The translations under genes were made by a program, and so were the position numbers. Below the pieces are notes generated by a model, which worked only from the letters and a program-made list of their open reading frames with translations, made no database searches and was not told the origin of the DNA. Below, in pieces: positions 39,732 to 50,971 of a stretch of 64,000 nucleotides of DNA. Source of the DNA: a virus. How positions within the stretch are numbered: the first letter of the stretch is position 1; each line of letters begins with the position of its first letter. Where the stretch lies: positions 1-64,000 of IMG/VR virus record IMGVR_UViG_3300019762_000005, one strand, 5' to 3'.

Positions 39732-39842
39732 AGTCAAGTGGCGGAGTTGGTTTCAACGCTCCACTAAATAAAGTGGCAACTGAGTAGTTTAATTATAGCT
39801 AATTAAATAAAAGGTACGCAGGTTCGAATCCTGCCTTGACTA
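39732..39842 (+). tRNA. Atypical tRNA-like RNA (111 nt, no assignable anticodon)
   Basis: Acceptor AGTCAAG/CTTGACT, D arm GCG..TGG..CGC, T arm GCAGG-TTCGAAT-CCTGC; abnormal anticodon loop; long variable region. Confidence 0.65.
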
Positions 39843-42874: not shown

Positions 42875-42948
42875 GTGTCGTTAGTAGAGTGGCCTAGCAC
42901 GTCTTGTGTAAAAACGAGGAAACATTGGTTCGAATCCAATACGGCATT
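42875..42948 (+). tRNA. tRNA with 8-nt anticodon loop (undetermined/pseudo)
   Basis: Acceptor GTGTCGT/ACGGCAT, T arm ATTGG-TTCGAAT-CCAAT, anticodon stem TCTTG/CGAGG with loop TGTAAAAA. Confidence 0.7.
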
Positions 42949-42963
42949 CAATTATTATTAAAA

Positions 42964-43046
42964 GGGGAGGTAAAGGCAACAATATAGGTTTAGTAGATTT
43001 CTATTAGATAGGGGTCTAAATGCAGGTTCGAGTCCTGTCCTTTCCA
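42964..43046 (+). tRNA. tRNA-like RNA with degenerate D/anticodon arms
   Basis: Acceptor GGGGAGG/CCTTTCC, T arm GCAGG-TTCGAGT-CCTGT; central 8-bp hairpin with 4-nt loop. Confidence 0.55.
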
Positions 43047-50207: not shown

Positions 50208-50219
50208 AATACTTTGATT

Positions 50220-50477
50220 ATGTCAGAAAAAACAATACCAGTATCAGTAAAAAGAGAACTGAAAACTTTAGGAGTTATGTATGGTGAATCTTTTTCTGCT
50301 ATAATGGAAAAGAAATGCACCTATATATACATAGAAGAGGATTTATCTAATCTGTCAAAATACGAGATTGATTTAATGTTTAACATTTACCCAGCTCTAT
50401 TAGACTACAGTTATATATCTAAAAAAATACAAAATGAGATCCAAGAAGCATTGGATTTTGTAAAAGACACATTATAA
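50220..50477 (+). CDS. Hypothetical protein
   Basis: Co-oriented ORF. Confidence 0.55.
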   Translation: MSEKTIPVSVKRELKTLGVMYGESFSAIMEKKCTYIYIEEDLSNLSKYEIDLMFNIYPALLDYSYISKKIQNEIQEALDFVKDTL

Positions 50478-50481
50478 TCAA

Positions 50482-50703
50482 GAGGGAATGACGGAATGGT
50501 AGACGTATAGCTTATCGGGCTAGAATGGAAAGGAGACGTGCTTAGGGTGCACAAGTCAGGTAAATACGAGTTACCTAAGACTTTCCAATAAGATTGATGA
50601 AAATATTAACGATTATCCGTACTAAGCTACCTGTTTACAGGATAGATAGCGTGCTGACTAACATCAATTATAATTCGTGCAGGTTCGATTCCTGCTTCCC
50701 TTA
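50482..50703 (+). ncRNA. tRNA-scaffold RNA with ~155-nt structured insertion (222 nt)
   Basis: Acceptor GAGGGAA/TTCCCTT, Leu-like D arm ACG-GAATGGTAGA-CGT, T arm GCAGG-TTCGATT-CCTGC; insert with two multibranch domains. Confidence 0.7.
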
Positions 50704-50722
50704 CTAAAACAACAACAACGAC

Positions 50723-50971
50723 ATGAAATTAGAGATTCATCCAGACGGAGAGTGGAATACAGAAAGATATGAATACAAAGGTAGAACTATAGAAATCAAA
50801 TCTAGGGATGACCACGGAATAAAGGCTCATTGTTACCACCAAGGTAAGGTAGTGTTTACCCAAAGATTTGTATTTATTAGACCAGCAAGACTTCTTAAGA
50901 GAATGGAAAGAAGAATTGACATGTGGATTAGTGGAGAATGGACTCCAAAGAAGTTACTAAAACAGAGATAA
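50723..50971 (+). CDS. Hypothetical protein
   Basis: A-rich leader, co-oriented. Confidence 0.6.
   Translation: MKLEIHPDGEWNTERYEYKGRTIEIKSRDDHGIKAHCYHQGKVVFTQRFVFIRPARLLKRMERRIDMWISGEWTPKKLLKQR

Follow-up and report, generated by a model that had tools for sequence, protein, structure and literature searches.

Non-decoding RNAs that resemble tRNA, among them tmRNA and the Y-RNA-like YrlA, have each revealed distinct biology, and tRNA processing signals are used to produce and stabilise other RNAs in gammaherpesvirus tRNA-miRNA units, mascRNA and engineered tRNA scaffolds. The latter systems are eukaryotic or synthetic, with the cargo released or replacing the anticodon loop, whereas the RNA described here is encoded by a phage and carries its cargo in the variable region. 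Lak megaphages, whose hosts are Prevotella (Bacteroidota), have tRNA genes with highly conserved 'enigmatic introns' that were tested against Rfam with no class reported (Devoto et al., 2019; 10.1101/356790). The tRNA region of T4 gives rise to RNAC and RNAD, small stable RNAs of unknown function (PMC3014915), and YrlA and other bacterial Y RNAs are non-coding tRNA mimics that also occur in phages (PMC4201824). In a large survey of viral structured RNAs, tRNA-like candidates are mentioned in general terms only (PMC10690425).

The element that we report is a tRNA-like non-coding RNA whose module is without match in Rfam 15 or in the literature searched. Like class II tRNA-Leu, it has a 7-bp acceptor stem, U8, a Leu-type D arm, a T arm, A73 and extra sequence at the position of the variable arm; it differs in lacking the conserved anticodon arm of 5 bp and 7 nt and in having as its variable region ~150 nt folded into two domains with a pseudoknot. 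It resembles YrlA in that T-arm and D-arm mimicry is joined to another functional helix, but YrlA carries its tRNA-like domain internally, and its ends make up the Ro-binding stem. By description, RNAC and RNAD of T4 are similar in being small phage RNAs from a tRNA gene region; they may be analogous to the element, to which they may also bear a structural likeness.

Results

Locus and layout of the element

The window analysed is the first 64 kb (64,000 nt) of a 92,675-bp IMG/VR viral record (IMGVR_UViG_3300019762_000005) with direct terminal repeats. Phage-family matches in the record comprise portal, large terminase, major head protein and DNA polymerase, and the closest cultured polymerases, those of Maribacter phage Panino and Cellulophaga phage phi14:2, are ~28% identical. 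The polymerase and family matches, together with the size of the genome, point to a crAss-like phage of Flavobacteriia, a host assignment based on one bacterial record (Myroides odoratus) and distant protein similarity. No close relative of the window phage was found, its polymerase relatives topping out at 41% identity, and the loci of these relatives (≤41% identical) lack a member of the family described below. The genes around the element form a tightly packed row on the + strand, in which it occupies a gap of 245 nt between two small + strand ORFs (50214–50477 and 50723–50971), with no + strand promoter-like or terminator-like site beside it. A neighbouring 593-aa protein has no relative among 5.8 billion proteins and none in viral contigs.

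The element is 222 nt long (50482–50704, + strand). Its acceptor stem has 7 bp, its D arm is of the tRNA-Leu type, its T arm is canonical and its discriminator is A; the acceptor, D and T parts enclose ~155 nt. The three arms, a hairpin at the anticodon position and the closing helices of two domains, all of which had been drawn in the original prediction, are present as follows (covariation and pairing are given for the 14 distinct sequences of the family):

50482–50488 (+): acceptor stem, 5' strand GAGGGAA; 7/7 paired with 50696–50702, and 7/7 pairs covary
50491–50506 (+): tRNA-Leu-type D arm ACGGAATGGTAGACGT, that is ACGG-AATGGTAGA-CGT; D stem covaries
50508–50522 (+): vestigial hairpin TAGC-TTATCGG-GCTA at the position of the anticodon arm; stems of 0–4 bp in homologues
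50526–50587 (+): domain 1, with outer helix a, inner helix b and a loop with the conserved ACA-AGUCAG-GUAAAUA
50526–50532 / 50581–50587 (+): helix a, TGGAAAG/CTTTCCA; covaries, 98.5% of cells paired
50541–50546 / 50574–50579 (+): helix b, CUUAGG/CCUAAG; covaries, 93.3% of cells paired
50554–50559 (+): pseudoknot strand 1, AGUCAG, in the domain 1 loop; pairs with 50654–50659
50593–50668 (+): domain 2, with helix c, the strand GAUGAAAAUAUUAAC (50596–50610), UAUCC, an expanded hairpin d and GUG-CUGACU-AA
50593–50599 / 50662–50668 (+): helix c, ATTGATG/CATCAAT; 100% paired, three covarying pairs
within domain 2 (+): hairpin d; covaries, with an expansion of ~25 nt private to the window phage
50654–50659 (+): pseudoknot strand 2, CUGACU, in the 3' internal loop of domain 2; pairs with 50554–50559
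50679–50695 (+): T arm GCAGG-TTCGATT-CCTGC; canonical T loop, stem covaries
50696–50703 (+): acceptor stem, 3' strand TTCCCTT (50696–50702), and discriminator A (50703), read from the sequence

CCA is not encoded, the bases after the discriminator being CTA; 10 of the 14 distinct sequences have A as the discriminator. The element's D arm is of the class II tRNA-Leu kind: its GGAATGGTAGAC motif also occurs in ordinary phage tRNA-Leu genes, and compared with the element the tRNA-Leu D arms of the Myroides host show a D loop 1 nt longer as the sole difference. Together with A73, this D arm makes the element a candidate mimic chargeable by LeuRS, for which leucylation is possible. In the window, the hairpin at the anticodon position has 4 bp and a 7-nt loop with the anticodon AUC, and across homologues it varies in stem length, in loop sequence and at position 33. 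The cloverleaf of the tRNA family (RF00005) is thus represented by covarying acceptor stem, D arm and T arm, but not by a 5-bp anticodon stem, a 7-nt loop, U33 or a conserved anticodon. Acceptor stems change rapidly, with pairing always kept. One ORF of 36 codons (50596–50706) overlaps the 3' half of the element: from its ATG at 50597 it crosses the T arm and stops at a TAA immediately beyond the acceptor stem. It is not conserved in homologues, whose frames differ, and it is therefore taken as non-coding.

Homologues of the element

An exact 22-mer of the D arm had no match in viral contigs, and BLASTN against GenBank phages returned none for the window element. A pattern of Leu-type D loop and T loop separated by 150–180 nt gave 10 distinct viral elements of 196–222 nt with perfect 7-bp acceptor stems, and a scan of bacterial genomes gave a 201-nt homologue in Myroides odoratus MIP2401, located in a phage-like region with PHROG matches that include a tail fibre. 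The window and Myroides elements have several blocks in common, with compensated helices. Patterns built from these blocks led to three further members (L183, L185 and L191), and the five sequences were used to build the covariance model R1, which recovered a non-training member, L092:11256–11455, at 159 bits. With the core pattern and then R1 applied, the count rose to 16 loci (14 distinct sequences) with scores of 100–221 bits; five of the 19 core-pattern matches were discarded as chance matches in coding sequence. The window element scores 181 bits as a training sequence and non-training members 100–186 bits, whereas ordinary tRNA-Leu genes and elements with other inserts score only 40–65 bits. 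The window element carries all that defines the family, namely helices a–d, a pseudoknot of the AGUCAG/CUGACU type, GUAAAUA, GAUGAAAAUAWUAA and ACUAACAUC. Besides it there are 13 distinct homologues, recovered through R1 and three independent patterns, 12 in IMG/VR viral contigs and one in the Myroides odoratus phage-like region, so that, judged from sequence, the module is present in at least 14 different phages. Most members were found by patterns that include the conserved blocks, so that the conservation of those blocks is in part ascertained. Discovery of the window–Myroides pair and of L092 did not depend on the core patterns, although the model that recovered L092 had been trained on sequences that included three members from the first core pattern.

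When the Myroides element was compared by BLAST with 400 genomes from the family of Myroides, only chance matches to the T arm or AT-rich sequence appeared, and R1 was likewise negative there. The L191 region is syntenic with the Myroides region, and the window phage has no detectable protein in common with the flanks of the element in L183, L185, L191 or the Myroides locus; no neighbouring protein common across the lineages was found. Homologues lie inside or adjoin phage tRNA clusters. In the Myroides odoratus phage-like region (L182:9600–10076), three Leu-like genes stand in tandem: a 77-nt tRNA(UAG) without a long variable arm, the 201-nt family member and a 136-nt Leu-type element with a different insert. 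Similarly, within 3 kb of a 186.8-kb viral contig (L092, 9418–12202) the family member is accompanied by at least four other Leu-type tRNA-like genes of 114–124 nt.

Covariation, the pseudoknot and conservation of the insert

We examined pairing in an alignment of the 14 distinct sequences (A5), which was fitted to the model for every helix except the pseudoknot, so that pairing counts favour the R1 helices. In it, standard pairs occupy 96.8% of the 600 pair cells, and compensatory changes on both sides are seen for 30 of the 44 pairs, both in the tRNA-like arms and, as the original prediction would require of a structured insert, within the insert. Partners slid out of register were paired in 31–50% of cells, and none of 500 shuffles reached the observed values. 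Covariation extends over the acceptor, D and T stems, helices a, b and c and hairpin d, with the two domain-closing helices (a and c) included, and a five-sequence MAFFT alignment that was not fitted to the model gave the same helix picture. The G-U pairs are consistent with an RNA of the + strand.

The two domains are further connected by a 6-bp pseudoknot, a helix that is not part of R1. It is paired in 14/14 sequences and occurs as seven haplotypes (AGUCAG/CUGACU, AGUCGG/CCGACU, AGUUAG/CUAACU, AGUUGG/CCAACU, AGUUGC/GCAACU, AGUCUA/UAGACU and AGUCAU/GUGACU); in one further member the first pair is a G-U. Among unpaired positions, strong conservation is seen in the blocks ACA and GUAAAUA on either side of the first pseudoknot strand, AAUAAG, GAUGAAAAUAWUAAC, UAUCC, and GUG and AA on either side of the second strand. 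This structure departs in part from the original prediction, whose drawing is matched by the minimum free energy (MFE) fold of the element. The inner helices proposed there for domain 1 (GTGC/GCAC, AGTC/GACT and AGGTAA/TTACCT) exist in the MFE fold only and are not conserved; they use nucleotides of the pseudoknot and therefore clash with AGUCAG/CUGACU. Those proposed for domain 2 (GCTA/TAGC and CCTGT/ACAGG) do occur in the sequence and in the MFE fold, but are confined to the private ~25-nt expansion of hairpin d. Folding energy is z = −2.0 against shuffles for the whole element and z = −1.46 for the insert alone, only mildly better than the shuffles, and the structure of the insert is therefore unproven on the window genome alone. 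For the window sequence, the MFE fold (−57.5 kcal/mol) offers no advantage over the family fold (−52.0 kcal/mol) combined with the pseudoknot (−6.3 kcal/mol). Look-alikes of a hammerhead, a C/D-box K-turn and a tetraloop receptor that were seen by eye are not kept in homologues.

Of all parts of the RNA, the insert is conserved best. Three of the 14 distinct sequences keep an intact core although their tRNA part is degenerate: the L214/L216/L220 type, which adjoins an array of 20 tRNAs, lacks a T arm and has its D arm reduced, and in L215 and L218 the T loops are aberrant. Because the core outlasts degenerate tRNA parts, it is the module that is conserved as a unit, and the tRNA-Leu body is a frame that is common but can be replaced. 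Taken alone, the claims on structure and family are in our view very probably correct on the comparative evidence.

Comparison with known RNA classes

Rfam 15 gave no family match at the element even at E ≤ 10, neither to a known intron nor to another non-coding RNA, and when gathering and permissive thresholds were used on the window, the locus and two sets of relatives (nine and six), the sole matches were to ordinary tRNA and tmRNA genes nearby. The tRNA model RF00005 is among those without a match at E ≤ 10, and ARAGORN in its default run missed the element as either tRNA or tmRNA, calling it only with lowered thresholds and an arbitrary intron. With Rfam and ARAGORN negative and no significant alignment to tmRNA, the element is neither a canonical tRNA nor a tmRNA, as had been predicted. 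For YrlA (RF02553), the relatives gave T-arm fragments only (E > 1), and the topology is reversed. The tmRNA of Myroides (L198; tag GENNYALAA) has in its PK1 the blocks GUUAGG, GUAAAUA and CUAAC, which also occur in the Myroides element, although in a different order, and this resemblance may be due to chance.

Other tRNA-like genes on Leu-type and other frames

A scan of metagenomes yielded more long Leu-like elements. Shorter forms, of 87–133 nt, were seen as well. Except among L082, L103 and L129, the inserts of this wider set have no similarity to each other or to the window insert above a shuffled null; none matches an Rfam family, and their folding energy has a mean z of −0.8 against shuffles. 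L082, L103 and L129 are near identical inside, with 6/7 acceptor pairs exchanged with full compensation. The first of these (L082:475–683) is a 209-nt Leu-type tRNA-like RNA with an unrelated insert of 113 nt, enclosed by a 10-bp stem in the anticodon position; after it comes a variable hairpin of the normal class II kind. This form, which like the window element was without a BLASTN match in GenBank phages, is identical on 16 metagenome contigs (L125 among the copies), at least four of them labelled human gut, and L103 carries the same insert on a completely different, fully compensated acceptor stem. A 46-codon ORF within the L082 insert was rejected as coding because L103 and L129 carry a stop. 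Another pair, L091 and L137, has common sequence blocks and one hairpin with three compensated pairs.

Further tRNA-like genes were also observed. In L009:7273–7417 and L016:3217–3369, from phages with related DNA polymerases, class I tRNA-like genes have 77–85 nt between covarying anticodon-stem strands (ACAGU/ACUGU vs CUUGU/ACAAG), the one in L016 adjoining a phage tmRNA gene. Contigs of 343–373 kb (L184, L186, L187, L188 and L195), as well as L196 and L197, carry tRNA-like genes of 101–113 nt in which an 8-bp stem takes the anticodon position and a 24-nt loop ends in AAUAACUAA before CAUC; these genes could be related to domain 2, as a minimal form that lacks domain 1.

The window phage itself has further tRNA-like genes. 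At 39732–39842 (+) there is one of Leu/Ser type, with the acceptor AGTCAAG, a loop of 6 or 8 nt at the anticodon position and a variable region of 39 nt with an 8-bp AT hairpin; it scores 39.3 bits with the Rfam tRNA model and 46.8 bits with R1, the level of an ordinary tRNA-Leu frame. Two more odd ones lie at 42875–42948 and 42964–43046 (+), of which one has an 8-nt anticodon loop (UGUAAAAA) and the other lacks a D stem and has an acceptor with G3-U70 and a long, irregular helix. No canonical tRNA was found by ARAGORN in the 92.7-kb genome, lowered thresholds included.

Discussion

We interpret the element as a non-decoding tRNA-Leu-derived RNA in which a pseudoknotted module of ~120–150 nt would be the working part and the tRNA body the frame, a reading to which we assign a probability of roughly 0.55. 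The tRNA-Leu body is most likely a processing and stability frame for the insert, given how the sequences compare: the module is kept beyond the frame, and the same frame is found with other inserts, both of which favour a scaffold. That tRNA ends might serve as a scaffold for a cargo RNA had been proposed in the original prediction and fits the comparative data, except that the insert is no featureless cargo but the best conserved portion of the molecule. We infer transcription, processing, stability, possible leucylation and any target of the element along the following lines. It would be co-transcribed with the neighbouring small early genes; the 'elbow' of acceptor, D and T arms would lead to excision by host RNase P, 3' trimming and CCA addition and would provide a compact, nuclease-resistant L-shaped body; and the pseudoknotted module, as the working part, would bind a host factor, a phage factor or a small ligand and so act in trans. 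Conceivably, though here we are tentative and would expect to be wrong rather than right, the tRNA-Leu body is a general platform on which phages, at least those of Flavobacteriia and other Bacteroidota, display and process several unrelated structured modules, the present one, with its pseudoknot and A-rich strand, being a new class of aptamer or ribozyme that binds a host factor or signalling molecule, for example in counter-defence, and that may carry leucine.

Alternatively, the gene could be that of an intron-containing tRNA, the insert being a new small intron, self-splicing or removed by enzymes, whose loss releases a decoding tRNA. The 'enigmatic introns' of Lak megaphage tRNAs (10.1101/356790) are a precedent, with over-long phage tRNA genes, conserved inserts and hosts in the Bacteroidota (Myroides odoratus in our case), and a conserved and pseudoknotted insert is what would be expected of a ribozyme core. 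ARAGORN with lowered thresholds can be made to force such a model, 'tRNA-Ala with a 134-nt intron', on the window element, and with the insert deleted in silico it calls tRNA(ATC); moreover, L083 resembles a tRNA-Leu(UAA) with ~49 nt inserted after U34. Yet the anticodons forced by ARAGORN differ in each of five homologues (Ala, Val, His, Pro and Arg), and the anticodon-position hairpin is not conserved in stem, loop or position 33, so that the element is not a decoding tRNA, nor does any single excision restore one with a conserved anticodon arm. The Lak inserts are set apart by their description as introns in tRNAs with assignable anticodons, whereas in the present element a decoding tRNA cannot be rebuilt and the insert persists longer than its tRNA frame: conservation lies with the 'intron' and decay with the 'exons', to the point that the L214 type lacks a T arm. 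Nor is there a match to group I (RF00028; E ≤ 10 in the window, E ≤ 5–10 in relatives) or to any other Rfam intron or ribozyme, and the insert lies in the variable region, 3' of the anticodon-position hairpin and not in an anticodon loop, with no Leu anticodon restorable. We therefore regard an intron as unlikely.

A tRNA-mimic decoy or sponge, whose activity would reside in the Leu-type acceptor and elbow, drawing off host factors or defence toxins that act on tRNA bodies or 3' ends, and whose insert would only block decoding, strikes us as improbable too. It would account for the finding that 4/4 tRNA-like genes of the window phage keep the acceptor stem and T arm and lack a normal anticodon arm, for the many phage Leu-type frames of normal length with degenerate anticodon arms (e.g. 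L101, 87 nt) and for acceptor stems that change fast yet stay paired. However, a decoy has no need of a conserved pseudoknotted core of 120 nt, three members keep that core and lose canonical tRNA features, and our analysis identified no defence system directed at tRNA-Leu bodies.

The architecture also recalls tmRNA, which has tRNA-like ends around a pseudoknot-containing insert and is often phage-encoded beside tRNA genes, and one could imagine a ribosome-directed RNA made up of a chargeable tRNA-like domain, a pseudoknot and an A-rich mRNA-like strand, with stalled ribosomes or the trans-translation machinery as its target. In this regard, the block GAUGAAAAUAAUAAC (window 50596–50610) agrees with the start of the Myroides tmRNA tag, GGCGAAAAUAAUUAC, at 12/15 positions, and phage tmRNA genes adjoin other long Leu-like elements in L094, L107 and L016. 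But the block match is post hoc and in A-rich sequence, and local alignment with the host tmRNA (score 18, within the shuffled null) shows no significant colinear similarity. Compared with tmRNA, the element is much smaller and has a Leu-type body with a full D stem and G3-C70 instead of G3-U70; the frames inspected include no tag reading frame or stop codon common to homologues; and neither Rfam (RF00023 and relatives) nor ARAGORN gives a tmRNA call. A tmRNA-like function is hence very unlikely. Finally, a decaying tRNA pseudogene or chance fold without function, for which one might cite the lack of canonical tRNAs in the phage and the unremarkable folding energy of the insert, is excluded for practical purposes by the covariation, with 14 distinct homologues that have no detectable nearby proteins in common, 30/44 compensated pairs and a covarying pseudoknot.

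The tRNA-Leu-framed RNA represents an RNA family supported by covariation and without a match in Rfam 15, carried on a leucine-tRNA body across phages that have no detectable nearby proteins in common. Alongside it are sister elements on the Leu body with different conserved inserts, one of them recurrent in human-gut metagenomes. The phage-like region of Myroides odoratus MIP2401 provides a cultivable carrier, which makes the question accessible to experiments at the bench. The finding also offers a testable explanation for the over-long 'tRNAs with enigmatic introns' of large phages, and the overall pattern points to a general phage strategy in which stable structured RNAs are made by way of the host tRNA maturation pathway.
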